Shown here piece by piece: positions 18,090-51,255 of a stretch of 64,000 nucleotides of DNA; positions within the stretch are counted from its first letter, which is position 1, and every line of letters starts with the position of its first letter. Made by a program: the position numbers and the translations under genes. The stretch is from Alphaproteobacteria bacterium (GTDB taxonomy: Bacteria; Pseudomonadota; Alphaproteobacteria; Bin95): positions 800,001 through 864,000 of the forward strand of contig CBDBGH010000003.1 in assembly GCA_965205265.1 (NCBI GenBank), given 5' to 3'. Under the pieces are notes generated by a model, which had not been told where the DNA came from, made no database searches, and saw only the letters and a program-made list of their open reading frames with translations.

Positions 18090-18560
18090 TTTTGAACATG
18101 AAATGTTCGTTTATTCTGAAATAATTCAGAAATAACTTGACATTGATGATATACACCTCAATATAAGGCGGGAGGGAAGGAAGCGGCATCCGCGGGTCCG
18201 CTTCGTTTTCCGTTTCGCGCCGGCGCGAAAACAGCCCCCGATTCGGCCAACGGGCGAGGTGCGCCCTGCGCCCGGCTCGCGCGCGCAAGCGCATGCGGGC
18301 AATCAGGCGCGCGAACCGCGCCGGCGCGAAACGCCCGCCCGCGGGCGCGGGCGCCCGCGGGCGGGGTACGCGCGAATCAAGGTCCCGCCGCAGGGGGCAG
18401 CCCGATGGCGGGGAGGAGGGAGCGGAGTGGAACGAAACGGGAGAAAGGAACGACATGAAGGAAGCCGACGGACACAGCTTCGAGGAAGGACGGACCTCAT
18501 GCCCCAAACGGCTACAGCATATGCCCCGTTCGCATGCGGATCATGACATCGCATGACATG
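18090..18560 (+). other. Dispersed non-coding element, copy A (AT-rich promoter, GC-rich core, 61-bp terminal repeat)
   Basis: Core 18217-18445 is about 80% identical by eye to the reverse complement of 50930-51143; CTTGAC-N17-CAATAT at 18136-18164; ends in CATGACATCGCATGAC at 18542-18557. Confidence 0.8.
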
Positions 18561-18763
18561 CCGTAACACTCCCGGCGGGAGGGGACAAAACAGGCTGGCG
18601 GCGGCGAATGGCGGCGCTTGACAACGGGCGCGTCCGGGGCTTCCCTTCGACCGGGGTATCGTGCCCGCGCACGTGGGGGATCGAATTGGAGCGTGGTCAT
18701 GGGGCGTTTGCGTTTCGCCGACGAGGGCTTGACATGGGTGTCTCGTTGGCTCGTGTATAATTT

Positions 18764-18846
18764 AGCGCCGAGCGCCGAGCGCCGAGCGCCGAGCGCCGAG
18801 CGCCGAGCGCCGAGCGCCGAGCGCCGAGCGCCGAGCGCCGAGCGCC
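18764..18846 (+). repeat. Heptanucleotide tandem repeat (AGCGCCG)x11 plus AGCGCC
   Basis: 77 bp of perfect units plus a partial unit, just 5' of the adhesin ORF. Confidence 0.97.
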
Positions 18847-18864
18847 CAACCTGCGTCTTCAGTC

Positions 18865-21800
18865 TTGAGGCCGCTCCGCCGGGCCGTGGCGGCGCCCGCC
18901 TCTCTCGTCTGCCATCGCTCCCCGCGCCGGGGCCGCTGCTCTGAGGTAGCCCTTTCCGGTTCGCGCGGCGGGTCCGCTTCCCGCTTCCTCCTTTCGGTCT
19001 TCGCCGAACTCCGGCCGCGCGCGGCCGCGATACCGCTGCTCGCCGCCGCCATCCTGTTCGCGGCGCCGTTCCTGCCCGGCGCGGGCGGCGCGGCGCAGGC
19101 CCAGCAAACCCAGGTGCTGGTCAGCAACTTTAATCAACCCGGCGGCGTCGGCGCCACTTTGGCCAATTTCGACCATGCCCTGGCGTTCACCACCGGCCGC
19201 CACAGCGGCGGTTACACGCTGACCAGCGTCAAACTCGCATTCGATTTCGGCAATCTGAGCTTCACCGCGAGCATCAACGCCGACAACAACGGGGAGCCGG
19301 GAAGCGCGCTGGGTACGTTGACAAGGAGCGCATCGGAATCCGGCCTGCTCACCCACGCCGGCATCAACCTGGCGGCGAATACCACTTACTTCCTGGTCTT
19401 CGACGTCGCTTCCGGTAACCGTGACGGCGCCACCACCGCCAGCAACGCCCAGACCGGGTTGACCGGCTGGAGCATCGCCGACGGCAACCTGTATCGGAAC
19501 AGGGACGCGACGAGCGGATCGTGGACAACCTGGTCAAACTCCTTCCGGATGCGCATCAGCGGCATCGCGAAAGGGACGGTGCCGACGCCGACCGCGACCA
19601 TCTCGCCGGTGACCTCGCCGGTGACCGAGGGGGCGGCGGCGAGCTTCATGGTGACCCTGTCGAGCGCGGCGCCGTCGGAAGGGGTGACCGTGAACCTTTC
19701 GGTGTCGGAGGCGGCGGGCAGCGACTACGTAACCCCGGGCAACGAGGGATCGAAGAGGGTGACGTTCGCCGAGGGAGAGACGCGCAAGACCTACCGCGTC
19801 GCCACGGTGGACGACGGGAACGACGAGCCGGACGGCTCGGTGACGGCGACGCTCTCCTCGGGCGCGGGTTACAACCTGGGATCGCCGGCGAGCGCCTCTG
19901 TCACGGTGCGGGACAACGATCAGGACACCCAGCCATCGTTCGGCGACAGGAGCATCGCGAACCAGTCGTACACGGAGAACGTCCCGATCCCGGCCCTGAC
20001 GCTGCCGGCCGCCGCGAGCGGCGACGGGACGCTGCGCTACAGCCTGTCGCCGGCGCCGCCGGCAGGCCTCTCCTTCGACGCCGGAACCCGCAGGCTGTCG
20101 GGCGCGCCGAGCGGCACCCAGGCGGCGGCGACCTACACCTACACGGCGACGGACGACGACGGCGATACCGACACGCTCACCTTCACCATCGCGGTCGCGG
20201 CGGCGCCGCCGGGCGCGACGCCGACCTTCGGCGCCCGCAGTATCCCGAACCAGTCCTACACGCAGGGCGTGGGGATCGCGGCGCTGACGCTGCCCCGGGC
20301 CACGGGCGGCAACGGGACGCTGCGCTACAGCCTGTCGCCGGCGCCGCCGGCGGGACTTTCGTTCGACGACGCGCCGCGCCGGCTGACCGGCGTGCCGACC
20401 GCAATCCAGGACGCCGCGGCATACAGCTACACGGTGACGGACGCCGACGGCGACACCGCCACGCTCAGCTTCACCATTGCCATCGAGGACGGGGCGACGG
20501 AAATCGAGGTGCCCGACGACCTGCCGGCGGAGCTCCGGCGCGTGCCGCGCAACGCCGCCCTGTCCGCGGACGGGGTCGTGACCTGGGACCTGGACACCGC
20601 GACCGAGCCCGACCGCTGGACCACCTACTGGGTGCAGTGGGTTTGGGACGAGCAGCCGCCGACGCGCATGGTCCTGGGACGAGCGCATGCCGGCGACGCG
20701 ACGCTGCGGGAGACCCGGTGTTCCGGCGGGAGTTGCGAGGTCCGGATCGAGGAGTTCGATCCCGGGCGGCACTACCTGGTCCACGTGACCACGCTGGAGC
20801 GGGCCTTGCGGCGCCTGCCGGCGGCGACGCTGCGGCATGTGCCGGCGCCGGATGAGGAAGCGCCGAAGGTTTCCGGCCTGCCGGAGGACGTGGCGGTCTC
20901 GGGCACCGGGCTGGTGACCTGGCGGGTGCCGGTCTCGGAGGGCGACTACACGGTCGCCTGGGCGAGCGGCGACCGCCGGCTGGAGACGGTGCCCACGCGG
21001 GGCGGGCAGCGCGGCGGGCTCGATACCGTGCGGGCCCGCGATTGCGAAGACCGGCTCTGCCGGTTGCAGATCCCGCGCTTCGACGCGGCGCGGCACTGGG
21101 TGGTGGAGGTGAACGCGCTCGACCGCAAGTTCCGGGGGCGCGAGCCCGTGCGGGTGCGGCACGTGCCGGAGGCGGCGCCGGGCGAGACCGTCGCCGGGGG
21201 TCCGGCCCGGTTCCGTGTCTATCACGACCCGTCGGACGGGACGGCGGTGGAGCGGTTCGACGAGGCCATGGCGGCGTTCCGCGCGGCGGGGATCGTGCCC
21301 GAGGTGATCGTGGCGGCGCCGCACGGCGAACCGGCGTTCCTCGCGGGCTATCCGTATGTGCGCATGCCGCGTTTCTTCGTGGGCGAGCCGTTGGCGAACG
21401 GCCGGTATCCGGGCGCGTGCAACGGCGGCCTGCGCTGGCTGAAGACTTATCTTGCGAACCTGCCGGGGGTATCGGCGGCCGACGCCCGCGTGCGCGAAGC
21501 GGACGGCGCGACGGTGGACTTCGCGGTAACGCTCGACAAGGCGGCGGCGACAGCGGCGACGGTGGATTTCGCGACCGCCGACGGCACGGCGACGGCGGGC
21601 GAGGACTATACCGCGGCGAGCGGCACGCTCACCTTCGCGGCGGGCGAGACCTCGAAGACGGTCTCGGTGGCGGTGCTGGACGATGCGTATGACGAGGGCG
21701 AGGAGACGTTCACGCTCACCCTCTCGAACGCCGCCGGGCTGCGCATCGCGGACGGCGAGGCGACGGGGACCATCGTGAACACCGACCCGCTGCCGCTGCC

Positions 21801-23850
21801 TGGGGCGGCGCCGCCGACGGGCGGCGGGACGGCGCCCCGGTTCACGATCTACCACGACCGGTCCGATCCGGCGGCGGTGGCCCGGTATGGGCAAGCCGTG
21901 CGGGCGCTCGGCGATGCGGGCGTCAGCCACCAGACGCGCCATGCAACCGGCGCCGAGGCGGGCGCCCTCGCGGGCGTCGGCCACTCGGTCATGCCGCGGT
22001 TCTTCCTTGGCGACCCGGCGGCATCCGGCTGGGGGCCGTCGCAGCCGAAGGTGAACAACGGCGGGCTGCGCTGGCTGCTGGCGTATATCGGGAACCTGCC
22101 CGGGCTGTCGGTGGCCGACGCCCGCGTGACGGAGGCGGAGGGCGCGAGGCTCGACTTCGCGGTGACGCTCGGCAGGGCGGCGACGGCGTCGGTGACGGTG
22201 GCCTGGGCGACCGCCGACGGCACGGCGCGGGCGGGGGCGGACTACACCGCCGCGAGTGGCACGCTCACCTTCGCGCCGGGCGAGACCTCGAAGACGGTCT
22301 CGGTGGCGGTGCTGGACGACGCCCATGACGAGGGCGCGGAGACGCTGACGCTCAGGCTCTCGAACGCGGCCGGCGCGCGCATCGTCGACGGCGAGGCGAC
22401 GGGCACGATCGGCAACGCCGACCCGCTGCAGAAGGACTGGCTTGCGCGGTTCGGGCGCGCGGCGGCATCGGGCGCGATCGCGGCGATAACGACGCGGCTG
22501 GAGATCCCTCTGGACGCGGGCTCGCACCTGACGCTGGGCGGGCAACGCATCGCGCTGGACGGTTCCGGGGGCGCCGGGGCCCAGCCCGGCGAACCGGTTG
22601 GCGCGTCCCGGCCGTCATGGTCTGGGGGCCCGGACCGGGCCGAGTCGCAAACCATGAACTGGCGCGAGCTGCTGATGGGGACCTCGTTCCGCGCGGTCTT
22701 CGGCGGCGGCGCGGGGCCACAGTTCACGAGTTGGGGCCGGGGCGCATCGGTGTCACAGTTCTCCAGCGCCGGTTCGGGTCTGTCGTTGAGCGGCGAGACC
22801 GCGACGGGATCGCTGGGAATGGACTACGAGCGGGGCCGCCTGCTGACCGGGTTCGCGATGACCCACAGCATTGGCGAGGGCACGGCACAGGGCGCGGGCC
22901 GGAGCTACGTCATGGGGAGCACGGTGACGACGATGCTTCCCTATGCGCGGCTGGCGCTCTCGGAGCGGGTGTCGGCCTGGGGTCTGGTGGGGACGGGCAG
23001 CGGGCAGCTCTCGCTCGATCTCGACGGCGGCGCGGCGGAGCGCTACCGCGCGGACCTCACGATGACGCTGACCGCGATGGGTGTGCAGGGCGCGCTGCTG
23101 ACGCCTGCCGAAGCAGGCGGGTTCGCGCTGGCGCTCAAGGCGGACGGGTTCTGGGTGCGCACGGAGTCCGACGGTGTCTCGACGCCGGGCGTAGGGAACC
23201 TGGTGGGGGCACAGGCCGAGGCGAGCCGCCTGCGGGCGGTGCTGGACGGCTCGCGGCGGTTTACGCTCGCGGGTGGCCGGACGCTGACGCCGTCGGCGGC
23301 GCTCGGGCTGCGCCATGACGGTGGCGACGCGGAGACCGGGACGGGCGTGGAGGTCGGCGCCGGCCTCGGCTATGCGGACCCGTCGCGAGGCCTGGACATG
23401 GGGCTCCGCCTGCACGGGCTCGCGGCGCATGCCGAGGAGGGCTACTCCGAATGGAGCGTGTCGGGCTCGCTCAGGCTGGTGCCGGGCGGCCGGGGGCGCG
23501 GCCTGTCGGCGTCGCTCACGCCCTCATACGGGGCGGACCCGGGCGGCGCGGACCGGCTGTGGACGATGCCGGACGCGCACGCGCTGGCGGCGAACGACGA
23601 CACGCCACTGTCGCGCCGGCTCGACGGGGAGCTCGGATACGGCCTTGCGGTGTTCGGCGGCCGGCTCACCGGCACGCCGCATGTCGGGTTCGGCCTGTCG
23701 GACACGGCGCGCGAGCTCCGCCTGGGCTGGCGTCTGACCCCGGCGGGCGGATCGGGCTTCGAGCTCGGTCTCGACGCCGCTCGGCGCGAGGCTGGCGGCG
23801 GCGATATGCCCGAGCACCGCATCGGCGTCGGCTTTACCGCGCGGTGGTGA
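18865..23850 (+). CDS. Large surface adhesin: signal peptide, VLVSN-type N-domain, 3 Calx-beta, 2 putative Ig (He_PIG), 2 FN3-like and 2 Grx-like repeats, C-terminal autotransporter-like beta-barrel
   Basis: AQA signal cleavage; TADGTATAGEDY..ASGTLTF.AGETSKTV.V.VLDD (Calx-beta); LRYSLSPAPPAGLSFD (Ig); WLARFGR...LRHDGGDAETG...terminal RW. True start uncertain. Confidence 0.85.
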   Translation: MRPLRRAVAAPASLVCHRSPRRGRCSEVALSGSRGGSASRFLLSVFAELRPRAAAIPLLAAAILFAAPFLPGAGGAAQAQQTQVLVSNFNQPGGVGATLANFDHALAFTTGRHSGGYTLTSVKLAFDFGNLSFTASINADNNGEPGSALGTLTRSASESGLLTHAGINLAANTTYFLVFDVASGNRDGATTASNAQTGLTGWSIADGNLYRNRDATSGSWTTWSNSFRMRISGIAKGTVPTPTATISPVTSPVTEGAAASFMVTLSSAAPSEGVTVNLSVSEAAGSDYVTPGNEGSKRVTFAEGETRKTYRVATVDDGNDEPDGSVTATLSSGAGYNLGSPASASVTVRDNDQDTQPSFGDRSIANQSYTENVPIPALTLPAAASGDGTLRYSLSPAPPAGLSFDAGTRRLSGAPSGTQAAATYTYTATDDDGDTDTLTFTIAVAAAPPGATPTFGARSIPNQSYTQGVGIAALTLPRATGGNGTLRYSLSPAPPAGLSFDDAPRRLTGVPTAIQDAAAYSYTVTDADGDTATLSFTIAIEDGATEIEVPDDLPAELRRVPRNAALSADGVVTWDLDTATEPDRWTTYWVQWVWDEQPPTRMVLGRAHAGDATLRETRCSGGSCEVRIEEFDPGRHYLVHVTTLERALRRLPAATLRHVPAPDEEAPKVSGLPEDVAVSGTGLVTWRVPVSEGDYTVAWASGDRRLETVPTRGGQRGGLDTVRARDCEDRLCRLQIPRFDAARHWVVEVNALDRKFRGREPVRVRHVPEAAPGETVAGGPARFRVYHDPSDGTAVERFDEAMAAFRAAGIVPEVIVAAPHGEPAFLAGYPYVRMPRFFVGEPLANGRYPGACNGGLRWLKTYLANLPGVSAADARVREADGATVDFAVTLDKAAATAATVDFATADGTATAGEDYTAASGTLTFAAGETSKTVSVAVLDDAYDEGEETFTLTLSNAAGLRIADGEATGTIVNTDPLPLPGAAPPTGGGTAPRFTIYHDRSDPAAVARYGQAVRALGDAGVSHQTRHATGAEAGALAGVGHSVMPRFFLGDPAASGWGPSQPKVNNGGLRWLLAYIGNLPGLSVADARVTEAEGARLDFAVTLGRAATASVTVAWATADGTARAGADYTAASGTLTFAPGETSKTVSVAVLDDAHDEGAETLTLRLSNAAGARIVDGEATGTIGNADPLQKDWLARFGRAAASGAIAAITTRLEIPLDAGSHLTLGGQRIALDGSGGAGAQPGEPVGASRPSWSGGPDRAESQTMNWRELLMGTSFRAVFGGGAGPQFTSWGRGASVSQFSSAGSGLSLSGETATGSLGMDYERGRLLTGFAMTHSIGEGTAQGAGRSYVMGSTVTTMLPYARLALSERVSAWGLVGTGSGQLSLDLDGGAAERYRADLTMTLTAMGVQGALLTPAEAGGFALALKADGFWVRTESDGVSTPGVGNLVGAQAEASRLRAVLDGSRRFTLAGGRTLTPSAALGLRHDGGDAETGTGVEVGAGLGYADPSRGLDMGLRLHGLAAHAEEGYSEWSVSGSLRLVPGGRGRGLSASLTPSYGADPGGADRLWTMPDAHALAANDDTPLSRRLDGELGYGLAVFGGRLTGTPHVGFGLSDTARELRLGWRLTPAGGSGFELGLDAARREAGGGDMPEHRIGVGFTARW

Positions 23851-23869
23851 GCGCGGCGCGGCGGCTTCC

Positions 23870-23930
23870 TCATGCCCGAAGCAGCGGTGGGATATGCGCC
23901 ATGCGCATACAAAACATGACATCGCATGAC
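23870..23930 (+). repeat. 61-bp terminal repeat of the dispersed element
   Basis: Gapless match: 46/61 to 18497-18557 and 49/61 to the reverse complement of 50809-50869. Confidence 0.85.
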
Positions 23931-23995
23931 GCTGCCGGCAGGCGTTCCGCGCGGCCCCGCCGGAGCCCGGTCATCGGCCCGTCCGTTCCGGGCCG

Positions 23996-27135: not shown

Positions 27136-27246
27136 CTGGGCGCTGCCTCCTTGCATGCCGTGCAGGCCCCTAGCCTAGACCGTTTCCGTGCGGCGCAGAA
27201 AGGCTCTAGAGTGCCTCGCTCGAAGACGGGAGAGGGAGGGAAATCC

Positions 27247-27984: not shown

Positions 27985-28023
27985 GGCGGCCCGAACCGGG
28001 ATGGGTGCAAACCGCCGCAGCGG

Positions 28024-28566: not shown

Positions 28567-28621
28567 AAAGCGGGCGGGCGCGCCGTAAGTCTCGCCGGCC
28601 ATTCGCGAAGGACACGAGCTC

Positions 28622-30117: not shown

Positions 30118-30123
30118 GCGGCA

Positions 30124-39653: not shown

Positions 39654-39702
39654 GAAGGCGGATTCCTTGTGCGGGCGAGTCGTCGGCAACAGGGCGGACA
39701 TC

Positions 39703-40503
39703 ATGCACATTCTATCGATCCAGTCCTCGGTGGCGCGCGGTTTCGTCGGCAACCGCACGGCCGTCTTCGTGCTCCAGCGCCTCGGCCATCGGGTCACCTG
39801 CATCGATACGGTCGCCTATTCCAACCATCCCGCCCATGGCGGCTTCCGGGGCGAGGTGCATCCGGCGGAAAGCATCGACCGCATCGTGAGCGGGCTCGCG
39901 GAGCGCGGTTTCCTGGCGGACATCGATCTCGTCCTTTCCGGCTATCTGGGCTCGGCCGCCAATGCGGAAGCGGTGGCGCGCACGGTGGACCGCGTCGGCG
40001 CGCCCTACCTGCTCGACCCGGTGATGGGGGACGATCCGAAGGGACTGTTCGTGGCCCCCGACCTGCCCGATGCGATCCGGCGCGAACTGCTGCCGAGGGC
40101 CGCGGCCGCAACGCCCAACCGCTTCGAGCTTTCCCTGTTCGGGGCCCGCGAGGTGGACGGGCCGGCGCGAGCCGCCGAGCTTGCCGCCGGGCTCGGGCCC
40201 TCCCTCGTCGTGGCGACGAGCGTGCCGGCGGGGGAAGGGCGGATCGCCTGTGTCGGCGTATCGCAGGGTGAGGCCCGGCAGGCCGCAGTGCCGCGCATCG
40301 CGCATCCTGGTTACGGGGCGGGCGACCTGTTCGCGGCGTTGTTCGCGGCCCGGTGGCGGGAAGGCTGGGCGGAGGCCATGGCGCTCGCCGCCGGCACCGT
40401 CCACGCCACCATAGCCCGCTCGCCGGGGCGCGACCTCGATATCGTGGGAGCGCAGGCCCTTTTCGCCGACCCGCCGCCCCCGCCGCCGCTGGAGGCGGTC
40501 TGA
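39703..40503 (+). CDS. Pyridoxal kinase (PdxK/PdxY)
   Basis: ILSIQS.V..GFVGN, SNHP, LSGYLG, DPVMGD, TPNRFE, GAGDLF. Confidence 0.9.
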   Translation: MHILSIQSSVARGFVGNRTAVFVLQRLGHRVTCIDTVAYSNHPAHGGFRGEVHPAESIDRIVSGLAERGFLADIDLVLSGYLGSAANAEAVARTVDRVGAPYLLDPVMGDDPKGLFVAPDLPDAIRRELLPRAAAATPNRFELSLFGAREVDGPARAAELAAGLGPSLVVATSVPAGEGRIACVGVSQGEARQAAVPRIAHPGYGAGDLFAALFAARWREGWAEAMALAAGTVHATIARSPGRDLDIVGAQALFADPPPPPPLEAV

Positions 40504-40588
40504 CGCCGCCGGCCGGGTCCCGGAACCGACAAACCGCGGCCCGAATCCGGCAGAGGTGGCGCGGCAGGGCTGCGAAGACCCATCGGGC

Positions 40589-40606
40589 ATGTCATGAGAT
40601 GTCATG
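40589..40606 (-). repeat. 18-bp direct repeat, identical to 50807-50824
   Basis: ATGTCATGAGATGTCATG at both positions. Confidence 0.85.
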
Positions 40607-40689
40607 TTCGGGGCTCATATAGTCAGGTTGACAACAGGTTTGCGAGGCTTCGCACTTTCTCTCCGGCGCTACGCACGGGTGCCCCCTCC

Positions 40690-41290
40690 GTCATGCCCGG
40701 ACTTGTTCCATTGCTGTCCGGTTCAGCCATTGGGTGAGGCTGAACGGGGGTCCGCCGGGGGTTTCGGGGGCGCGCGGCGTCTGCGATCCGCCCCTTGCCC
40801 GTGAGGCTCGAACGCCCCCCTTCGGCAGGCTCAGGGCAGGCTCTTTCGTCATACCCGGACTTGTTCCACGGCTGTCCGGTTTAGTCATCGGGGGGAGCCG
40901 AACGGGGTGTCGGGAGCGCACTGCGTCTGCGATCCGCCCCTTGCCCGTGAGGCCCCAACGCCCTCCTTCGACAAGCTCAAGACAGGCTTCTCCGTCATAC
41001 CCGGACTTGTTCCGGGTATCCACACGGCCGCCCGGCTGAGCCGCTTGAGAGAGATACCCGGAACAAGTCCGGGTATGACGATATGGGGCGGGTATGACGA
41101 TGTGAGGGTAGGGACGCCGGGCGTCGATCCGGGTCCCGGTCCCGCCGAACCCCTCGAAACCCGGTTGAATTCGAGCCATACGTCCTGTCCATAAAATCTA
41201 AACCGGACAGCAATGGACTTGTTCCGGGCATCCCTCTCGACCGCTTCCGCCGGGCTGCAGCATGGATGGCTGGAACGAGTCCGGCCATGA
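40690..41290. repeat. Cluster of REP-like palindromic units (GTCAT[AG]CCCGGACTTGTTCC)
   Basis: Units at about 40690, 40848, 40993 and 41215, with an inverted partner at about 41055-41080; same family at 59135-59213. Confidence 0.85.
40709..41215. mobile_element. Non-autonomous MITE inserted in a REP-like palindrome
   Basis: 15-bp TIRs CATTGCTGTCCGGTT / AACCGGACAGCAATG, flanked by a 9-bp duplication GACTTGTTC (40700-40708, 41216-41224). Confidence 0.75.
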
Positions 41291-41889
41291 TGGAAGAAGT
41301 GTTGGCGGCCTCCCCATCCACCTGTCCACACAAGCTCCTCATGTTTTGTCATGAGGTCCGGCGGATGGAGACACTGTGCGATGTGTCATGATCTGCCAGT
41401 AGGAAACATAATTTATTTTGTTTTCAACGAGTTGCAAATGTATGGATTGAATTCGTCTTCATAGCGCAAGCGGATTCGATCAATCTCCGGTCGAGCCTTG
41501 TCAGATCCGGTCTGTCAGCCTGTGACGGCTATCGTGGCCGACTGTCACCAGTATTCGTGCGAGGCCGACAATTGGCAGCCTGCGGCAGTACGCCCTCAGG
41601 CTCGGTGATGCATACCGTGCCTTGCAGGTAGCAATGACCATAACCGAGTTTCTGGTTCGAACGAAGATCGTAGCGGTGCGCCACCCCCAAATTATCTGTC
41701 GCCTCCGTCTCAGGCGCTCCGGTGCCAATCGACGCGCCTTAACTCTTCCGAACAACGACCGTGCCCCTTCAGTCGGCGCCGATCTTGAAAAGCCGTCGAA
41801 CCCGTACCTGCTGCCCATGCGATCGGGAGCGTCCCCGCTGCCGGTTGAGGGGCACAATTCGCTATCGGCAGGCATACCCCTGCGGCTTG

Positions 41890-42152
41890 AACGGCAGGCC
41901 GACCTGCCCGACGATCTGGTGCTCATCCCCGGTGTGATCGACAGCACCACCAACTATGTCGAGCACCCGCGCAACGTCGCCGACCGCATCCTGCGCTTCG
42001 CCGACATCGTCGGACGGGAACGGGTGATCGTCGGAACCGACTGCGGATTCTCGACGTTTGCGGGATACGGCGTTGTGGACCCCGAGATTGTCTTCGCAAA
42101 ACTCCGGGCGCTTGCCGAGGGGGCGGCAATCGCAAGCGAAGAGCTGTTCTGA
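41890..42152 (+). pseudogene. 3' fragment of a cobalamin-independent methionine synthase II-family gene
   Basis: LIPGVIDSTTNYVEHP..VADRI, GTDCGFSTF, KLRALAEGA; the upstream frame is not homologous. Confidence 0.8.
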
Positions 42153-42404
42153 AGCGATTTGCCGCTCTGCGAATTGCGGTTGCCGCCGAGCCGTCAGACC
42201 GAACCGGAAGCCGTGTTTCGGTTCCTTATTCCCGTTAACGCGTTCCCGGCGGGCCGTCGCATCGGCGACAGTCCACAAGAGCGTCGCAGAGTAGTTGCCA
42301 TAGCCTGACGCCAGGCTCCACAGGTCTGCCTGGCGCATTCGCCGCTTCGCCCGTTCCTTCTTGTATGCTGAGACTCCATCGGTCACGGAATACGGCAGAT
42401 TGAT

Positions 42405-43346
42405 ATGATTCTGAGCTGTGGCGAGGCGCTCTTCGACCTTTTTCCTTCTACAGCAACGGATACGGGCTTTGTCTTCGATGCGCGCGTCGGCGGCTCGCCC
42501 TTCAACGTCGCCGTCGGTCTCTCGCGCCTGGGCCGCGAGGCTGCGCTCTTTACGGGCCTATCCACGGATCCGCTGGGACGCCGGCTCGAACGGACGCTCC
42601 AGGAAGAGGGCGTGGATACGGCATATATCGTCAGCAAGCAGAACCCGACGACGCTGGCGCTTGTCGGCCTCGATGCCGGGGGCATTCCGCACTACAGCTT
42701 TTACGGCCACGACGCTGCCGATTGCTCGATCAGCGAAACGGATTTGCCCGATCTGCAGCAGTCGGTAACGGCCATCCATTTCGGTTCCTACTCGCTGGTG
42801 GTCGAGCCTACCGGCACCTCACTACTGGAGTTCGCCCGGCGCCATCGTGGCCGGAAGCTCATCTCGCTCGATCCCAATCTCCGCTTGACGGTGGAACCGG
42901 ATATGGGCCGGTGGCACCGACGGGTCGAGGCGTTCTCGGCGATCGCGGACCTTATCAAGGCAAGCGACGAAGAGCTCGAACTGTTGTTCCCCGGCGACGG
43001 GATCGACAGCGCGGTCGGTCGCTGGAGCGCCCGGGGCGTGCAACTTGTCGTGGTTACCCGCGGCGGCGAGGGGGCCCTGGTTTCCCTCCGGGGCGAAGTC
43101 TTCGAGGTGCCGGGCCGCACGGTCGAGGTTGTCGATACGGTTGGTGCCGGCGACAGCTTTCAGGCCGGGCTGCTCTCTGGCCTGGACGGGCTCGGCAAGG
43201 CGACGAAGCAGGGCCTCGCGCAGCTGTCGCTTGAGGAATGCCGCGGGGTTGTCGCCTTCGCCACGGAGGCGGCGGCCGTCACCTGCACGCGCCGCGGCGC
43301 CGACCTGCCCCGTCGCCCCGACCTGCCGGCGCTCCGAACCGGATGA
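42405..43346 (+). CDS. PfkB carbohydrate kinase (fructokinase-like)
   Basis: CGEALFD, GGSPFNVA, DPNLR, VDTVGAGDSF. Confidence 0.92.
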   Translation: MILSCGEALFDLFPSTATDTGFVFDARVGGSPFNVAVGLSRLGREAALFTGLSTDPLGRRLERTLQEEGVDTAYIVSKQNPTTLALVGLDAGGIPHYSFYGHDAADCSISETDLPDLQQSVTAIHFGSYSLVVEPTGTSLLEFARRHRGRKLISLDPNLRLTVEPDMGRWHRRVEAFSAIADLIKASDEELELLFPGDGIDSAVGRWSARGVQLVVVTRGGEGALVSLRGEVFEVPGRTVEVVDTVGAGDSFQAGLLSGLDGLGKATKQGLAQLSLEECRGVVAFATEAAAVTCTRRGADLPRRPDLPALRTG

Positions 43347-43479
43347 CCCGTCCGGGCTGCGGCATGCGCTGCGGGCCGCCCATTGTGTGAAATCGCGCCG
43401 CTATGTGAACTCGCGGGAATATGTTTGAATTTGCGGCTGCATCGGCACGGCCCCATAGTCGCGAGGGAACCAGGACGGG

Positions 43480-44736
43480 ATGGGAGGCGGAGAGTCCACC
43501 GGCCTCAGGGCCTATAACGAGCGTCTGATGATCGCCGCAATCAGGCAGGCGGGCGCCTTGTCGAAGGCGGAAATCGCGCGCACGACCGGGCTCAGCGGCC
43601 AGGCCGCCACGGTAATCGTGAACTCCCTGCTCGACGACGGGCTCCTCGTCAAGCGCGAGAAGGTACGCGGGCGGGTCGGAAAGCCCATCACGCCGGTCGC
43701 GCTCAATCCCGAAGGGGCCTTTTCCCTGGGCGTCAAGATCGGCCGCCGCAGCCTCGAGGCCCTCCTGGTCGATTTCGGCGGCGCTGCTGTCGCGTCCCGG
43801 TCCGTGCCCTATCCGGCCCCGCTTCCGGCGCAGACAATGGAGCTGGCGAAAGAGACGGCCCTGGAGCTCGTCGGCTCCCTGGAACGCCGCCTGCGCGACC
43901 GAATTGTCGGACTCGGCGTTGCCATGCCCTGGGTCATGTACGAATGGTCGGACGTGCTCGGCCTGGAACGCGAGGCAATCGCGGCATGGCGCGAAATCGA
44001 TGTCGCTACCGAGTTCGAATCCGCAACCGATCTGCCGGTGTCGCTCTACAACGATGCTACCGCCGCCTGCGCCGCGGAGATGATCGCCGGTAACGGGATC
44101 GACCGGGGCAGCGCGCTCTACATCTATCTCGGCACCTTCGTCGGCGGCGGGGTCGTCATCGACGGCCGGCTCTACCGGGGCCGGCAGTTCAATGCGGGCG
44201 CGCTCGGCTCAATGCCGATGGACGGGACCGACGGCGACGGGCGGCCCCATCAGCTCATTCACCAGGCATCGGTGATCGATCTGGAACGGGCGCTGGCAGC
44301 GGGCGGATTCGACGCCTCCGAGATGCTGAGTCCGCAGGTCACCGTGAAGGCCGAGGCCATCTTCGACGCCTGGCTGCAGCGCGCGGTCGCCGCCCTTGCC
44401 CGCGCCGTCGTATCGGCCATGAGCGTGGTGGACTTCGAAGAAGTGGTAATTGACGGGCTTCTCCGCCCCGACTGGCGCCGCCGCGTGGTCGAGGGCGTGA
44501 GCCGCGCATACGCCCGGTTCGACCGCACCGGCCTTTCGCCCATCGAAATCGCGACAGGCTCCATCGGGCCGCAGGCGCGGGTCCTCGGCGCTGCGCTGCT
44601 ACCCCTGATCGGACGGTTCTCCCCGGACACGGAGTTGCTGGTGAAGGCCGCGGGAGGCCCAAAAGCGGCCACCCCCCGGTCCCCGGCCGATACGGGAAGA
44701 CCGGAGCCGACAGGAGCAGCGGGAGACGCGGCATGA
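43480..44736 (+). CDS. ROK family transcriptional regulator
   Basis: N-terminal HTH (SKAEIARTTGLS), YNDATAAC.AE, GTFVGGG, NAGALG. Confidence 0.9.
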   Translation: MGGGESTGLRAYNERLMIAAIRQAGALSKAEIARTTGLSGQAATVIVNSLLDDGLLVKREKVRGRVGKPITPVALNPEGAFSLGVKIGRRSLEALLVDFGGAAVASRSVPYPAPLPAQTMELAKETALELVGSLERRLRDRIVGLGVAMPWVMYEWSDVLGLEREAIAAWREIDVATEFESATDLPVSLYNDATAACAAEMIAGNGIDRGSALYIYLGTFVGGGVVIDGRLYRGRQFNAGALGSMPMDGTDGDGRPHQLIHQASVIDLERALAAGGFDASEMLSPQVTVKAEAIFDAWLQRAVAALARAVVSAMSVVDFEEVVIDGLLRPDWRRRVVEGVSRAYARFDRTGLSPIEIATGSIGPQARVLGAALLPLIGRFSPDTELLVKAAGGPKAATPRSPADTGRPEPTGAAGDAA

Positions 44737-44840
44737 GCACTGCGCAGGCGGCCGGCCCAAATTGCTCTTGACTCGCTGGCGCATGCGTCATTTAGTCAAT
44801 CAGATTGGGAAACTTGGGACAATCACGGGAGAGAAACCGG

Positions 44841-46160
44841 ATGCGGTTGAAGACCACAATCTGTGCGGCCGGCGCGGCCGCGCTTCTGGCGGCGACCGGA
44901 GCCTACGCCGACTCGCACGCCACGACCGTCACCATTGCGACCGTCAACAACGGCGACATGATCCGCATGCAGGGGCTGACGGAGGACTTCACGTCCCGGC
45001 ACCCCGATATCGAGCTCGAATGGGTGACGCTGGAAGAAAACGTTCTGCGCCAGCGCGTTACCCAGGACATCGCTGCGAAGGGCGGCCAGTTCGACGTTCT
45101 GACCATCGGCACCTACGAGGTTCCGATCTGGGGCAACAACGGCTGGCTCGTCTCGCTGAACGACCTGCCGGCGGAATGGGATGTCGACGACCTTCTGCCG
45201 GCCATCCGCTCCGGCCTGACCGTCGATGGCGAACTCTATGCCGCGCCGTTCTACGGCGAGAGCTCCATGGTGATGTACCGGACCGACCTGATGGAAAAGG
45301 CCGGCCTGGAGATGCCGGATGCGCCGACCTGGGCCTTCATCAAGGAAGCCGCGGCGGCGATGACCGACAAGGACGGGGAAATCTACGGCGTCTGCCTGCG
45401 CGGCAAGGCCGGCTGGGGCGAGAACATGGCGTTCCTGACCGCCACCTCGAATTCTTTCGGCGCGCGCTGGTTCGACGAGGACTGGAAGCCCCAGTTCGAC
45501 AGCGAGGCCTGGGCTAACACGCTCAACTTCTACATGGACCTTATGACCAACTACGGTCCTCCGGGCGCCTCGACCAACGGGTTCAATGAAAATCTGTCGC
45601 TGTTCCAGCAGGGCAAGTGCGGCATGTGGATCGACGCGACCGTAGCAGCCTCCTTCGTGACCAATCCGAAGGACTCGACCGTGGCCGACAGTGTCGGCTT
45701 CGCTCTGGCGCCGGACAATGGGCTCGGCAAGCGCGGAAACTGGCTCTGGGCGTGGTCGTTGGCGATCCCGGCGGGCTCGGACGCCACGGACGCGGCGAAA
45801 AAGTTCATCGCTTGGGCGACCGGCAAGGGCTACACTGAGCTGGTAGCGTCGAAGGAAGGCTGGGCCAACGTTCCGCCGGGCACGCGGACCTCGCTCTACG
45901 AGAACGCGGCCTATCTCGAGGCGGCACCGTTCGCCCGGATGACGCTAAATTCGATCAACGCGGCCGACCCCAAGCAGCCGACCGTCGATCCGGTGCCCTA
46001 TACCGGCGTGCAGTTTGTCGCGATCCCGGAATTTGCGGGAATCGCCACGCAGGTGGGGCAGGAGTTCTCGGCCGCGCTCGCCGGCCAGCAGACCGTCGCC
46101 GAGGCGCTCGAGAAGGCGCAGGCCCTGACGGCCGACGAAATGGAAGCCGCCGGCTACTAG
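44841..46160 (+). CDS. smoE: Sorbitol/mannitol ABC transporter substrate-binding protein
   Basis: TIATVNNGDMIRMQ, WVTLEENVLRQ, RGKAGWGEN, GVQFVAIPEF. Confidence 0.9.
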   Translation: MRLKTTICAAGAAALLAATGAYADSHATTVTIATVNNGDMIRMQGLTEDFTSRHPDIELEWVTLEENVLRQRVTQDIAAKGGQFDVLTIGTYEVPIWGNNGWLVSLNDLPAEWDVDDLLPAIRSGLTVDGELYAAPFYGESSMVMYRTDLMEKAGLEMPDAPTWAFIKEAAAAMTDKDGEIYGVCLRGKAGWGENMAFLTATSNSFGARWFDEDWKPQFDSEAWANTLNFYMDLMTNYGPPGASTNGFNENLSLFQQGKCGMWIDATVAASFVTNPKDSTVADSVGFALAPDNGLGKRGNWLWAWSLAIPAGSDATDAAKKFIAWATGKGYTELVASKEGWANVPPGTRTSLYENAAYLEAAPFARMTLNSINAADPKQPTVDPVPYTGVQFVAIPEFAGIATQVGQEFSAALAGQQTVAEALEKAQALTADEMEAAGY

Positions 46161-46340
46161 CGATTCCGCCCACAAATCCCTGTCGACCGAAAGTCGCAGA
46201 GTTCCGCCAACCCGAAAGGCCGAAGACAAGAATAAGCAGGTCTTTCCAGCCAACCGCCGCGCCGGAGGGCGGCACCGGTCTCCCTCCGGCGCGGCAATCG
46301 TCTCCGGTTTATCCCGGTCCGGTCCGGAAGGAGATGCGTC

Positions 46341-47207
46341 GTGGCTACCCAGCATTCCAGATCCGCCGCCCGAGCGATGATGGCGCCCGCGGTCTTCCTG
46401 CTCCTCGTCTGGATGCTGGTGCCGCTTACCATGACGCTCTACTTCTCGTTCAAACGCTACCTGCCACTTCGCGGCGGCGACCTGGGATGGGTCGGCTTCG
46501 ACAATTACATCCGCTTCGTCACGTCGAGCTCCTTCTGGCCGAGCGTGCAGACCACGCTCGTCATCGTGGGCGGCGTGCTCGCGGTCACGGTGGTTCTGGG
46601 AGTGCTGCTGGCGCTCCTGCTGGATCAGCCCATGTGGGGGCAGGGCGTCGTCCGGATCCTGGTTATCGCGCCGTTCTTCGTGATGCCGACGGTTTCCGCG
46701 CTGGTCTGGAAGAACATGTTCATGGACCCCGTAAACGGGCTGTTTGCGCATCTCTGGAAGTTCTTCGGCCTGGCGCCGCTGGAGTGGCTCAGCCAGGCTT
46801 CGCTCCTATCCATCATCCTTATCGTGTCCTGGCAATGGCTGCCCTTCGCGACGCTGATCCTGCTGACGGCAATCCAGTCGCTCGACAGCGAGCAGCTGGA
46901 AGCGGCGGAGATGGACGGCGCCGCTCCGCTGTCACGGTTCGGCCACATCATCCTCCCGCACCTCAGTCAGGCCATCACGATCGTCATTCTGATCCAGACG
47001 ATCTTCCTCCTGTCGATCTTTGCCGAAATCTTCGTCACCACGCAGGGCTCTTTCGGAACCCGTACGCTGACCTACCTGATCTTCCAGCGCGTGCTGGAGA
47101 GCCAGAATGTGGGGCTTGGGTCGGCAGGCGGCGTCTATGCGATCATTCTCGCCAATATCGTGGCGCTCTTCCTCATGCGCATCGTCGGCAAGAACCTGGA
47201 TTCGTGA
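46341..47207 (+). CDS. smoF: Polyol ABC permease
   Basis: MATQHSRS, IAPFFVMPTV, EAAEMDGA. Confidence 0.9.
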   Translation: MATQHSRSAARAMMAPAVFLLLVWMLVPLTMTLYFSFKRYLPLRGGDLGWVGFDNYIRFVTSSSFWPSVQTTLVIVGGVLAVTVVLGVLLALLLDQPMWGQGVVRILVIAPFFVMPTVSALVWKNMFMDPVNGLFAHLWKFFGLAPLEWLSQASLLSIILIVSWQWLPFATLILLTAIQSLDSEQLEAAEMDGAAPLSRFGHIILPHLSQAITIVILIQTIFLLSIFAEIFVTTQGSFGTRTLTYLIFQRVLESQNVGLGSAGGVYAIILANIVALFLMRIVGKNLDS

Positions 47208-47219
47208 GGAGCAATAGCT

Positions 47220-48050
47220 ATGGCACGAGCTGTCACGAACCAGCGCAAGACCGTCAACACCGCCATCGCCTGGGCAATCGGCCTGTTGATCTTCTTCCCG
47301 GTCCTCTGGACGATCCTGACGAGTTTCAAGACCGAGGCCGAGGCGATCGCCGACCCGCCGGTCTTTCTCTTCTTCAACTGGACCCTGGAGAATTACTCGG
47401 TTGTCCAGGAGCGTTCGGACTATATGCGCTTCCTGTGGAATTCGGTGATCATCGCCGGCGTCTCCACGCTTGTCGGAATCGTCGTCGCCGTTCCCGCCGC
47501 ATGGTCCATGGCCTTCGTACCGTCGAGGCGGACCAAGGACGTCCTGCTCTGGATGCTGTCGACCAAAATGCTGCCGGCGGTGGGCGCCCTCTATCCGATC
47601 TACCTGATCTTCATCGAACTCGGGCTCCTCGACACGCGCGCCGGCCTCGTCCTCGTGATGATGCTGATAAACCTGCCGATCATCGTCTGGATGCTCTACA
47701 CCTATTTCAGGGAAATCCCCGGCGAGATCCTGGAAGCGGCGCGGATGGACGGCGCATCGCTCAGGAACGAGATTCTCTACGTGCTGACGCCCATGGCCGT
47801 TCCGGGCATCGCCTCTACCCTTCTTCTGAATTTCATCCTGGCCTGGAACGAGGCATTCTGGACGCTGAACCTGACCGCGGCCAAGGCCGGCCCGCTCACG
47901 GCCTTCATCGCCAGCTATTCAAGCCCCGAGGGTCTGTTCTACGCCAAGCTGAGCGCCGCCTCGACCATGGCCATCGCGCCGATCCTCATCCTTGGATGGT
48001 TCAGCCAGAAACAACTCGTCCGCGGCCTGACCTTCGGCGCGGTGAAGTGA
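47220..48050 (+). CDS. smoG: Polyol ABC permease
   Basis: [32 protein letters not shown]. Confidence 0.9.
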
Positions 48051-48060
48051 GGACAAAGCT

Positions 48061-49065
48061 ATGGGACGCATCGTTCTCGACAAGGTGGAAAAGTCCTTCG
48101 GCGACGTGAAGGTAATTCCACCTCTCGACCTCGAGATCGAAGACGGCGAGTTCGTCGTCTTCGTCGGCCCGTCCGGTTGCGGCAAGTCCACACTCCTTCG
48201 GTTGATTGCGGGGCTTGAGGACGTTACCGGAGGCACGATCCGGATCGATGGGGAGGACGCGACATCGGTGCCACCGGCCCGACGCGGCCTCGCGATGGTG
48301 TTCCAGTCCTACGCGCTCTATCCGCACATGACGGTCCGCAAGAACATCAGCTTTCCTCTGCGGATGGCGAAGCTGGACAAGGCCGAGCAGGACCGGCGCG
48401 TCGAACAGGCGGCCGGGGTCCTGAACCTGACCGACTATCTCGACCGCCGGCCGGGCCAGCTTTCGGGCGGTCAGCGCCAGCGAGTCGCCATCGGTCGCGC
48501 CATAGTTCGCGAGCCGGCGGCCTTCCTCTTCGACGAACCCCTCTCGAACCTGGACGCGGCGCTGCGAGTGGGCATGCGCCTCGAGATCAGCGAGCTGCAC
48601 AAGCGCCTTGAGACCACGATGATCTATGTCACCCACGACCAGGTCGAGGCGATGACCATGGCCGACAAGATCGTCGTCCTGCAGGCCGGGAGGATCGAGC
48701 AGGTCGGCTCACCGCTGGAACTCTATCGTTCGCCCCGGAACAGGTTCGTGGCGGGTTTCATCGGCTCTCCCAAGATGAACTTTCTGGAAGGGCCGGAAGC
48801 GGAGAAACTCGACGCGCAAACGATCGGCATCCGGCCCGAGCACATTGCGCCGTCGCCGGACAAAGGCGCGTGGAAGGGTCGTGTAGGCGTATCGGAGCAT
48901 CTCGGCTCGGACACGTTCTTCCATGTCCACATGGAAGGTTATGCCGACCCGATCACCGTGCGGTCGGGCGGTGAAGTGGATATGCACCACGGCGACACGA
49001 TCTATCTGACCCCGGATGCGGGGCACATCTACCGGTTCGACAGCCAGGGTCTGAGGATCGCCTGA
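48061..49065 (+). CDS. smoK: Polyol ABC ATPase
   Basis: [25 protein letters not shown]. Confidence 0.92.
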
Positions 49066-49094
49066 GGCGGCTCGAAGGGAAATCGACCCGAGCC

Positions 49095-50597
49095 CTACGG
49101 GGCGATGTAGGTCTGCAAGGCGGCTTCGCAGCCGCCCGACCAGATCTTTTCGAGCCAGCGCCCGAACGCCCCGGCGAAACGCAGCGCCTCTGCCAGGTCG
49201 CCGTAGAACTGGCGTTGCGCCAGCCAAGCGCGCGGATCGGCCCGCGCTGCATTCGCGGCGGAGCGAAGCGCGTCCCAGTGCGGGTCGTTCGGTTCAATTG
49301 CGGAGCCGTCCTCGCGCGTCCCCGCGCACATGCGCGCCCAGAGCGCCTCGACCAGCGCAAGCCCCTCGACCGGCGCGCCGGTCCTGAGACCGTCACGAAT
49401 GCTCGGCAGCACGAAGCCCGGATGGCGTGACGATCCGTCGAAGGCGACGCGCCGCACCGTGTCACCGATGGCGGGGTTCGAAAAGCGGCGGTCGATCAAG
49501 TCCACATATTCGTCCGGGGTAAAGCCGGGAACCGGTTTGACATGAGGCGCAATCTCATAGCGCTGCACCTTGCGAAAGAAAGTGCGAAGCAAGGACTCGG
49601 CCATGCAATCCGATATGGTTTCGATAGACAGGAGTTCGCCCACGTTCGAAACGATCTGGTGTCCCCCGTTGAGGATGCGGATCTTCATCGCCTCGTAATC
49701 GTGGATCCTGTCCGAGAAAGTGGCGCCCACACGCTCCCAGTCCGGACGCCCGACGCGGAAATCGTCCTCGATGACCCACTGGCGGAAGTTCTCGTGCGTG
49801 ACGGGAACCGCGTCGTCGATGCCGAATGCCTGCGAAAGCGCCAGCTCCTCCGGTCCGGTTCGCGGCACGATGCAATCGACCATCGAGTTCGGAAACGAGC
49901 AGTTCGCGTCGATCCACGCGGCAAGGCCGGGATCGGACGCCTGTGCGAGCGAGACCACGGCCTGGCGCAGCGCAGCGCCGTTGCCGACGAGATTGTCGCA
50001 GCTCTGGCCGGTGAACGGGTTAATGCCCTCCTCGCGCCTGAGCCTGAGCGCCGCAACCATCGCGCCGAACGCCGTTCGCGGGCGGTCCGGGAATGCTATG
50101 TCGTGCCGGATGTCGGCATGCGTCTCGTCGAAGCCCTTTGTTGCGGGATCGACATAGTATCCGCTCTCGGTCACCGTCAGTGAGACGATCCGGATTGCGG
50201 GGTCGGCCATTTGGCGGATCAAGGCAGCGTTGCCTGATTCGACTGGCAGATAGTCGATCATCGCGCCGGCCACCTCCGCCGACTTGCCGGACGGGTCGAG
50301 TTCGATCAACGTCGACAGGCAGTCCTGCCTCAAGAGCTTCTCGCGCTGGAGCGCATCGTATTGACGGACTCCGGCCCCGACGATTGCCCAGTCGCGGTCG
50401 AGGCCGAGCTGAAACAGCCGGTGCAGATACCAGGCCTGGTGCGCGCGGTGGAAGTTGCCGAGCCCGATATGGACGATCCCCGGTGTCAGAGCCGCCCGGT
50501 CGTAGATCGGCCGGGCAACCGTTTCCGGCAGGTCATTCAGCGTGGCGTCGGAGAGTTGGATCAAAGTCGGGCTTTCGAATTCCGATCGACCGATCAT
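49095..50597 (-). CDS. mtlK: Mannitol dehydrogenase family (mannitol 2-dehydrogenase-like)
   Basis: GIVHIGLGNFHRAHQA, SCDNL, FPNSMVD.IVP, QWVIED, KIRILNGGH; start may be TTG at 50564. Confidence 0.88.
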   Translation of the reverse strand: MIGRSEFESPTLIQLSDATLNDLPETVARPIYDRAALTPGIVHIGLGNFHRAHQAWYLHRLFQLGLDRDWAIVGAGVRQYDALQREKLLRQDCLSTLIELDPSGKSAEVAGAMIDYLPVESGNAALIRQMADPAIRIVSLTVTESGYYVDPATKGFDETHADIRHDIAFPDRPRTAFGAMVAALRLRREEGINPFTGQSCDNLVGNGAALRQAVVSLAQASDPGLAAWIDANCSFPNSMVDCIVPRTGPEELALSQAFGIDDAVPVTHENFRQWVIEDDFRVGRPDWERVGATFSDRIHDYEAMKIRILNGGHQIVSNVGELLSIETISDCMAESLLRTFFRKVQRYEIAPHVKPVPGFTPDEYVDLIDRRFSNPAIGDTVRRVAFDGSSRHPGFVLPSIRDGLRTGAPVEGLALVEALWARMCAGTREDGSAIEPNDPHWDALRSAANAARADPRAWLAQRQFYGDLAEALRFAGAFGRWLEKIWSGGCEAALQTYIAP

Positions 50598-50799
50598 GGG
50601 CGCAACGCTGGCTTCTGCTGTCACGTGGGCAACATCGAGATACGACGCGCAGACCACAGGTCGCACATGTCAGGTCAGCGGGTGGCGTAACTTGACATCC
50701 AGGAGCGGGTCAAGATTTCAGATTTGATATCTCGACCCATGGCCGCCCCCTCCGGCCGCCATGTGAATAGCACTCCATAGCGGCCACCTAAAGAAATTC

Positions 50800-51255
50800 G
50801 CATTTTATGTCATGAGATGTCATGATCTGCATGCGTAAGGCACATATCCCACTGCCTGTTCGGGCATAAGCTGCGGATATTTCATCCGGTTCCGGTAGCA
50901 TTCTGTCTTCGGCACAGATCCGTCCCTTCACTCCAGTTTCGTTCCATTCACCCCGCCGCCGACTGGCCGGCGGCGGGACCCTAATCCGCGCGTATCCCGC
51001 GTGCCGGCGCTCGCGCCCGCGGGCGCGCATTTCGTGGCGGCGCGAATCGCGCGCCTGATTGCCCGGGTGCGCCCGCGCGCGCGAGCCAAACGCAGGGCGC
51101 ACTTCACCCGCTGGCCGAATCGGGGGCTTTTTCGCGCCGGCGCCGACGCGGAGGACGAGGCGGCCTCCGGACACCGCCCATCCAGCCCAATATAGGTTCT
51201 GATTATTTTTGTCAACTATAATCAGGAATTATTACTAAAATTTAAGGAACAATAC
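50800..51255 (-). other. Dispersed non-coding element, copy B
   Basis: Reverse complement has an AT-rich TTGACA region, the same GC-rich core as 18217-18445, and the 61-bp terminal repeat (50809-50869). Confidence 0.8.

Follow-up and report, generated by a model that had tools for sequence, protein, structure and literature searches.

A dispersed repeat family with CATGAC tails at breakpoints of gene gain and loss in an alphaproteobacterial genus

Two unrelated gene islands in the chromosome of an alphaproteobacterium (assembly GCA_965205265.1, here G000; 5.70 Mb, 68% G+C, three contigs) each start with a noncoding element and are closed by a second copy of the 16-mer with which that element ends, raising the question of whether both were built by a dedicated gene-capture system. 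The islands lie in the 64,000-nucleotide stretch analyzed here (the window; positions 800001-864000 of C3, the chromosome contig, the other contigs being plasmid contigs of 236 kb in total). In island 1, element A and an adhesin-like gene are accompanied by CATGACATCGCATGAC at 18542-18557 and 23915-23930 on the + strand; in island 2, element B and a polyol/sugar cluster are accompanied by CATGACATCTCATGAC at 50824-50809 and 40606-40591 on the − strand. We found that the 16-mer is the tail of a dispersed repeat family and not an insertion duplication, and that each island is a complete unit of this family, followed by ordinary chromosomal genes and then by another tail, rather than a duplication-bounded cassette. 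Between species, gains, losses, and relocations of genes break at tails, beside which other mobile DNA is also inserted.

A family of short units ending in CATGAC arrays

The motif copies from which the initial annotation started are all present. The four 16-mers occupy the positions and strands given above and were absent from 100 shuffles of the window; the identity of the island 2 pair does extend to 18 bp (CATGACATCTCATGACAT), and a degenerate fifth copy (TGTCATGATCTGC) lies at 41384-41396 beside an AT-rich tract. Elements A and B also proved to be members of one noncoding family with the 16-mer as its 3′ end: they align end to end at a mean column identity of 80% (73% over 390 bp by BLAST). 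Their parts are as follows.

18094-18567, + strand: element A, a complete unit without an open reading frame (ORF), matched by nhmmer over hmm positions 3-487 (E = 1.2e-134)
18097-18102, 18104-18109, and 18120-18127: CATGAA, TGTTCG box, and AATAATTC box of element A
18137-18142 and 18160-18166: promoter-like parts of element A, TTGACA and a −10-like hexamer
18180-18204 and 18259-18391: 5′ hairpin and conserved GC-rich core of element A
18410-18422 and 18497-18541: ribosome-binding site (RBS)-like GGGGAGGAGGGAG and 3′ hairpin module of element A
18542-18557 and 18562-18567: tail of element A, CATGACATCGCATGAC, and its degenerate third unit CGTAAC
50800-51255, − strand: element B, a complete ORF-less unit with its tail CATGACATCTCATGAC at 50824-50809 (nhmmer, hmm positions 20-477, E = 3.5e-98)

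The same parts recur throughout the chromosome. The pattern CATGACATCNCATGAC yielded 58 exact 16-mers in G000, every one on C3, while CATGAC-N4-CATGAC yielded 136 overlapping matches that merge into 103 arrays, again every one on C3, with two units in 71 of them, three in 31, and four in a single array; the 10-bp tandem period reported for the window is strictly kept genome-wide. An iterated nhmmer search seeded with element A returned 106 matches (41 full length, 33 5′ parts, 25 3′ parts, 6 others, and 1 at a contig edge). All are chromosomal: the 236 kb of plasmid contigs hold 0 of the 136 pattern matches and 0 of the 106 element matches. The hexamer CATGAC is itself in excess on C3, with 4661 copies against 1733 expected from base composition (about 2.7-fold).

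Heads and tails belong together. An array lies at most 1.35 kb downstream on the same strand in 63 of the 75 head-containing matches, and a head is found at most 1.5 kb upstream of 89 of the 103 arrays. The remaining 14 are solo arrays, and they include both of the window's second copies (23915-23930 and 40606-40591). This genome-wide proximity implies that the real unit is short and that A and B are each complete with a tail of their own. The initial annotation had seen in the two islands one special architecture; with a tail this close in 63 of 75 heads, that claim is not supported. Its further argument, that the variable base of the 16-mer is G/G in one island and T/T in the other as expected of a duplication, also loses its force: genome-wide this base is G in 24 copies, C in 23, and T in 11, so a match between two copies is expected by chance with p = 0.36 per pair (about 0.13 for the two pairs together), and the matches carry little weight.

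The order of the unit parts was taken from a hidden Markov model (HMM) conservation profile and from aligned heads. The unit is a self-contained module of ∼0.45-1.3 kb. Its head comprises a TTGTTC box, a AATAATTC or AATATTTC box, TTGACA, 15-16 bp, and a TATGAT-like hexamer that often follows TG. Downstream of this promoter-like head come a 5′ hairpin (GGAAGCGGC...GCCGCTTCC) and a GC-rich core of ∼130 nt, which is the best conserved part, and then a GGAGGAG-type RBS, a variable region, usually a 3′ hairpin (ATGCCC..GGC..GCATATG..CGCATGC), and the tail of two to four CATGAC units with a 10-bp period. The variable region is empty in A and B; in other copies it holds an ORF of 198 amino acids (aa) or one of 307-325 aa. 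Of 72 distinct heads, 36 passed a sigma-70 scan, and 26 of these had an extended −10 TG; among shuffled controls, 13 of 72 passed. When six copies were aligned with 200-bp flanks, both unit boundaries were sharp and the flanks unrelated; neither a target-site duplication nor a terminal inverted repeat was seen in these six, and the two ends are unlike each other (AT-rich head, CATGAC tail).

Some tails are compound. A recurrent two-part form consists of two CATGAC units, a spacer of ∼27 nt (acatcgcaGGGGaGg..ccgccggg..) that includes an RBS-like GGGGAG, and two to three further CATGAC units, the starts of the two sub-arrays lying 53 bp apart. Elsewhere, several 3′ modules follow a unit in series (C3:1270392/1271013, C3:2926300/2926759/2927028, and C3:3879047/3879803). 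The two-part tails are at

C3:1897317-1897385, 125463-125531, 1223564-1223632, 2266966-2267034, 4158864-4158932, and 1488349-1488416.

The family is largely confined to one genus. Among 16 other genomes of the genus (G004-G016 among them), 13 carry the element in many copies each, whereas eight genomes of other genera of the same family gave three weak single matches and are essentially devoid of it. The family appears to be undescribed, having no Rfam match and, for one of its ORFs, no Pfam family; the titles and opening abstract lines found by literature searches offered no description of such an element either. Rfam 15 had no match in the window, and the only hit of element A at E ≤ 1 was a chance U3 match (20 bits versus 34). 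RNAalifold on 66 copies and a pair scan of 68 HMM-aligned copies returned just alternatively pairing GCGCGC stretches with at most two covarying pairs per helix, and these analyses support neither the presence nor the absence of a fold.

Two candidate roles for the units were rejected. As leaders or promoters of host genes they would be expected to share an orientation with them; 18 full units have the same and 23 the opposite orientation relative to the adjacent host gene (crude gene finder based on third-codon-position G+C (GC3), 71% of C3 covered), and with orientations about equal we do not consider them host-gene leaders. A pair of near-identical heads at C3:690265 and C3:695372 was considered as an autonomous form and set aside, as IS4-like and IS21-like genes lie between them.

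One large stretch of the chromosome, C3:4633216-5413545 (∼780 kb), contains no unit or tail, compared with an average of about one unit match per 50 kb, while insertion sequence (IS)-sized ORFs do occur within it. The units at C3:193-649 and 42553-43194 have exact twins at its borders (4632760-4633216 and 5413545-5414186), which suggests large duplications or an assembly join. The CheckM-type contamination of the assembly is 7.28%.

Tails at the breakpoints between species

The cargo of island 1 and its second tail are

18865-23850, + strand: adhesin-like ORF of 1661 aa with Pfam Calx-beta and He_PIG domains
23870-23930, + strand: hairpin and tail (CATGACATCGCATGAC at 23915-23930) of a solo 3′ module; the 1.5 kb upstream of it contain no head

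The locus was compared across species by using as query the 569-aa ORF that ends at 18087 (labeled fbpB in the initial annotation), which has one ortholog in each of the 16 genus genomes. In G012 (96% aa identity), the query ORF runs directly into the convergent molybdopterin-subunit gene, with no unit, adhesin, or CATGAC between them. In G007 (95% aa identity), a full unit ending in CATGACATCTCATGACATGCCATGAC leads straight into the sequence that lies after position 23930 in G000, again without the adhesin. Since this flank follows the G007 unit directly, the segment 18568-23930, comprising the adhesin gene and the solo 3′ module, is an insertion or deletion, and on the aligned sequences its right edge is a tail and its left edge directly follows one. 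Elsewhere, the head is truncated by other DNA in G005, two units are present in G015, 11 other genomes have no unit within 1.5 kb, and the G014 contig ends at this point. The closest adhesin copies are in G004 and G005 (84% nucleotide identity at the 3′ end), at other loci whose fetched flanks hold no element or array; the adhesin is an ordinary chromosomal gene.

Sequence joints that appeared to connect 18558 with 23909 and 18523 with 23903 were rejected as evidence for circles or deletions, because their extra letters match the two-part tails of other copies; they are paralog artifacts. Upstream of the adhesin ORF, at about 18755-18850, lies a tandem GCGCCGA(G) simple repeat; near-identical short stretches of this type occur in G004, G005, and G009 and at C3:2759858, and a paralogous adhesin upstream region, 85% identical, is at C3:2598062-2598273.

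Island 2 and its surroundings hold the following features.

42303-50727: polyol/sugar cluster, the island cargo (Pfam: PfkB kinase, ROK regulator, sugar ABC transporter, mannitol dehydrogenase)
41340-41396, − strand: decayed tail containing the fifth copy (gcagatCATGAC, spacer, CATGACaaaaCATG), with an AT-rich stretch upstream at 41400-41460
40640-41300, − strand: copies of a repeat resembling a miniature inverted-repeat transposable element (MITE), with GTCATRCCCGGA...TCCGGGYATGAC palindromes and an end, ...AACCTGTTGTCAACCT..GAGCCCC, that abuts the distal tail
40591-40606, − strand: distal tail CATGACATCTCATGAC, adjoining the gene at 39637-40503 (labeled pyridoxal kinase in the initial annotation)
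51259-54280, + strand: tauABC-like genes, divergent from element B (Pfam: NMT1/TauA-like binding protein, ABC ATPase, permease)

A unit with its tail facing the pyridoxal-kinase-labeled gene is found in G004, G005, G006, G007, G009, G012, G015, and G016 as well as in G000, while short empty intergenic regions occupy the same locus in G008 and G011. The content between head and gene-proximal tail varies among these nine genomes: nothing in G006, G007, and G015; small inserts and a second 3′ module in G004, G009, and G012; an ORF labeled isochorismatase-like from its sequence in G016; and 10.2 kb in G000. Two sub-arrays with a spacer between them make up the tail at this locus in G005 and G007, and both of those in G005 read CATGACatctCATGAC. 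The distal tail of G000 is orthologous to the second of these sub-arrays, and the G000 cargo lies between the sites of the two. Both T-type 16-mers thus sit in the two-part tail of a relative, and their identity predates the cargo. The proposal that each pair arose by duplication at insertion cannot be upheld against this; as its second tail, island 1 has a solo 3′ module and island 2 the second sub-array of an older two-part tail. The spacer of the decayed tail, acatcgcacagtgtc, matches the spacer after the tail at C3:2839775.

The order in G007 is the pyridoxal-kinase-labeled gene, the tail, the unit, and then the equivalent of window position 54097 onward, without the polyol cluster and most of tauABC. 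In G005, an ortholog of B stands beside tauABC on another contig, with 85% identity over a 2.7-kb block. The polyol block occurs at other loci in G014 (97% identity), G012 (96%), G008 (88%), and G011 and G016 (84% each), and no unit or array was found within 1.5 kb of these relocated blocks, except for one unit beside the G008 copy. Because it stands at other loci without the motifs, we regard the polyol cluster as a relocated ordinary chromosomal cluster and not as a cassette.

Within G007, similarity restarts directly beside the unit head, at a point (54097) that falls in the 3′ end of the permease gene; tauA, tauB, and most of tauC are gone (3068-3561 of the locus G007:C165:43000-60000). 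This tau-gene loss looks like a deletion adjacent to the head.

The expectation that relatives would show gain and loss of cargo at the motif was therefore borne out in part: G007 and G012 differ from G000 in this way at island 1, and G007 does so at island 2, but both the adhesin and the polyol cluster also occur in relatives without motifs, a finding that the initial annotation itself had named as refuting its reading.

Other mobile DNA meets the tails as well. Of 22 copies of the MITE-like element, 10 have their end against a CATGAC array, five in each orientation, and the distal 16-mer of the window is one such junction; at two further copies, which are duplicates of each other, the end abuts a unit head. 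The MITE-like repeat, present at about 22 C3 loci, carries a CATGAC/GTCATG hexamer of its own in its GTCATRCCCGGA...TCCGGGYATGAC palindromes.

Unit-encoded proteins and the possible role of the tails

In the ORF-bearing units, the small ORFs directly follow the RBS of the head. G000 has nine intact copies of the 198-aa ORF, plus truncated ones, and seven copies of the 307-325-aa ORF, plus fragments, in units of 1.26 kb. Both are multicopy in nearly all genomes that have them (12 of the 16 genus genomes for the longer and 13 for the shorter); relative to the query copy, identity is 90-98% for copies in G000 and ∼55-76% for those in other species. The N terminus of the longer protein matches Terminase_2 (PF03592; E = 4e-13, 50.6 bits versus a cut-off of 26.1) and small-terminase phrogs (phrog_51, E = 5e-14), and its C-terminal part is long and acidic. 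An AlphaFold model, confident for residues 10-100 only, resembles the DNA-binding domain of SF6 G1P (4zc3) with a template-modeling (TM) score of 0.82 and 40% identity over 50 aa, the whole-model E-value being just 0.034. The 198-aa protein had no Pfam, NCBIfam, PADLOC, or fold match and no Atlas lead above 0.85; its sole phrog match is weak and to a phrog without assigned function. No match to any known transposase family was found for either ORF. Both run into the tail and end in ...HDI(S/A/P)*. H304 and D305 are invariant across 36 homologs of the terminase-like ORF, and because the ORF ends inside the tail, this invariance reflects the DNA motif rather than the protein.

We lean toward the view that the tails act as hot spots where recombination and insertion take place, and that neighboring gene blocks are moved in this way. 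Of the two options in the initial annotation, the data agree best with the second, in which a dispersed repeat promotes the gain and loss of cargo through recombination; the breakpoints in relatives lie at tails. The tail would serve as a protein-recognition site, and the best candidate for its binder is the unit-encoded small-terminase-like helix-turn-helix protein, whose gene ends inside it. Recombination between tails could delete DNA in cis, and excised circles might integrate in trans, relocating neighboring gene blocks. More speculative, and in our estimate doubtful, is a modular DNA-mobility system in which the terminase-like protein, perhaps with the 198-aa protein, would sit on the tail, a host or other recombinase would join tails, units and any DNA held between two tails would be cut out and reinserted at ∼100 chromosomal sites, and a promoter-driven RNA from the conserved core would control or guide the process.

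Several points weigh against assigning the tails this role. The detailed comparison with relatives covers two loci. A tail-to-tail deletion in G007 and an insertion in G000 would look alike, so the direction of the island 1 event is not distinguishable. The tail of A has the canonical intact terminus (CATGAC-ATGC-CGTAAC, as in four other copies), which places the left junction after the tail and not inside it. The units encode no known recombinase, and the terminase-like protein has no predicted catalytic domain, its predicted local distance difference test (pLDDT) scores being low outside residues 10-100. A left-end CATGA[AC], considered as a second att core, proved weak, occurring in just 16 of 72 heads versus 10 of 72 reverse-complement controls. 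Finally, the genome is much rearranged and rich in IS copies (60 of one 551-aa ORF), and some breakpoints may therefore hit repeats by chance.

If the tails do act in this way, the chromosome would have a new route, independent of transposases and integrons, for shuffling ordinary gene blocks (adhesins and sugar-uptake clusters, for example), and an orphan small-terminase-like protein would gain a role outside phage packaging. On a more ordinary reading, what is documented is a high-copy, promoter-bearing repeat family that marks hot spots of structural variation. The family will confuse annotation and assembly in these genomes.

The alternative put forward first in the initial annotation is dedicated capture of the integron or att type, in which the head would be an expression platform, the tail an att site, and circular cassettes would be inserted by a recombinase acting in trans. 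Much of the layout invites this comparison: a promoter-bearing platform and an ORF that runs into a structured site of recombination type, with head, RBS, ORF, and tail in constant order for two unrelated ORF families in G000; end modules in series after some units; and locus content that varies between species, with the isochorismatase-like ORF of G016 in the same place beside the pyridoxal-kinase-labeled gene. The array is, moreover, the sole identical stretch between the two ends of each island, G007 lacks the island 1 cargo exactly at the motif, and the 54 tyrosine-recombinase-like matches in G000, none of them in the islands of the window, could supply an enzyme in trans. The reading nevertheless fails its defining tests. 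A search of the whole genome for an integron integrase (TIGR02249) gave a best score of 72 bits against a cut-off of 265. attC is an imperfect palindrome with inverse core sites, whereas the 3′ module is a short hairpin plus direct CATGAC repeats with a 10-bp period, and no attC-like form was found. The initial annotation had noted no recombinase or transposase in either island, and none was found by Pfam in the 20 ORFs scanned from the islands and their flanks, a set that takes in part of the small ORFs. The large cargos are ordinary chromosomal genes that stand elsewhere in relatives without motifs, both T-type 16-mers are older than the cargo, and the orientation of units to host genes is random; ∼75 platforms per genome, each unit having its own head, are unlike any known integron. 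We judge capture of this type unlikely.

A second alternative holds that the units are static, being inert or purely regulatory (small-RNA genes or leaders), that the islands are chance neighborhoods amid IS activity and general homologous or illegitimate recombination, and that nothing sets the tails apart. The motif is certainly abundant, with 103 arrays and 36 of 101 same-strand neighbor gaps at or below 12 kb; the variable-base match is expected by chance; and two IS-sized ORFs are present in 60 and 14 copies. That ORF-less copies in G000 are mutually only 70-90% identical marks them as old, and the conservation of the core rather than the ends is more in keeping with a functional site, in RNA or DNA, than with a transposon. 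Static units are hard to reconcile, however, with the sharp edges of presence and absence at orthologous sites, with the higher identity of ORF-bearing copies within G000 than between species, with the MITE-like ends that abut arrays, with the break of both islands at tails relative to G007, and with the confinement of all pattern and element matches to the chromosome. We consider this reading improbable.

Least credible, and in our view very improbable, is that the tails are pac-like sites at which the small-terminase-like protein binds the CATGAC repeats and recruits a phage large terminase for packaging, and thereby transduction of adjoining host DNA, from ∼100 chromosomal sites: in several pac phages the pac site does lie in or beside the small-terminase gene, as the array does at the end of the terminase-like gene here, the Terminase_2 helix-turn-helix fold resembles the pac-binding domain of SF6 G1P, and the direct repeats are phased at about one helical turn, but searches of G000 with PF03237, PF03354, PF04466, and PF17289 yielded no large terminase, no phage context surrounded any unit copy examined, most units have no ORF, and the common promoter-like head and conserved core are left unexplained. 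Unlike its SPP1/SF6 counterparts, the gene is an orphan in seven copies, has a long acidic C-terminal part, and stands behind a promoter-like head of its own.

The family can also be compared with known repeats. Correia, ERIC, and REP-BIME elements are scattered between genes and either carry promoters or influence rearrangements, and the units resemble them in being high-copy, intergenic, limited to one genus, made up of diverging copies, and tied to insertions and rearrangements. They differ in having no terminal inverted repeats, unlike ends, a center that is more conserved than the ends, and a whole gene in some copies; moreover, PF01797 found no Y1/RAYT transposase in G000, while the same search found one in 6 of 14 control genomes. 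The long ORF-bearing copies and the many short ORF-less ones with common ends, similar within a genome, recall IS/MITE pairs; here, however, the ORFs belong to no known transposase family, and the six aligned copies show neither a target-site duplication nor an inverted repeat.

Other mobile DNA in the genome

The 551-aa ORF (start MFVRIKTSPNS) has 60 copies on C3, one of them in the window at 11445-13100, and a 549-aa ORF has 14; both are presumably IS transposases. A link between the units and the 551-aa ORF was considered, since it is adjacent to six units, and rejected, because with 60 copies in the genome this is unremarkable. IS110 elements, which combine a bridge RNA with a DEDD recombinase, were likewise rejected as partners of the units: none of the eight PF01548 matches in G000 lies inside a unit, and the only match adjoining a solo 3′ module occupies a different palindrome. 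Two identical IS110-family copies, at G000:C3:4156337-4159759 (L198) and at L197, have a common 1136-bp core, and one of them interrupts a CTCCCCGCTTGCGGGGAG-type palindrome shortly upstream of a solo 3′ module; palindromes of this family also follow some 198-aa ORFs. Many of the 54 tyrosine-recombinase-like matches stand in adjacent pairs or trios (e.g., C3:437226/439122/440350, 2385187/2386342, and 2398374/2399517), an arrangement that we take to resemble recombinase-in-trio elements.

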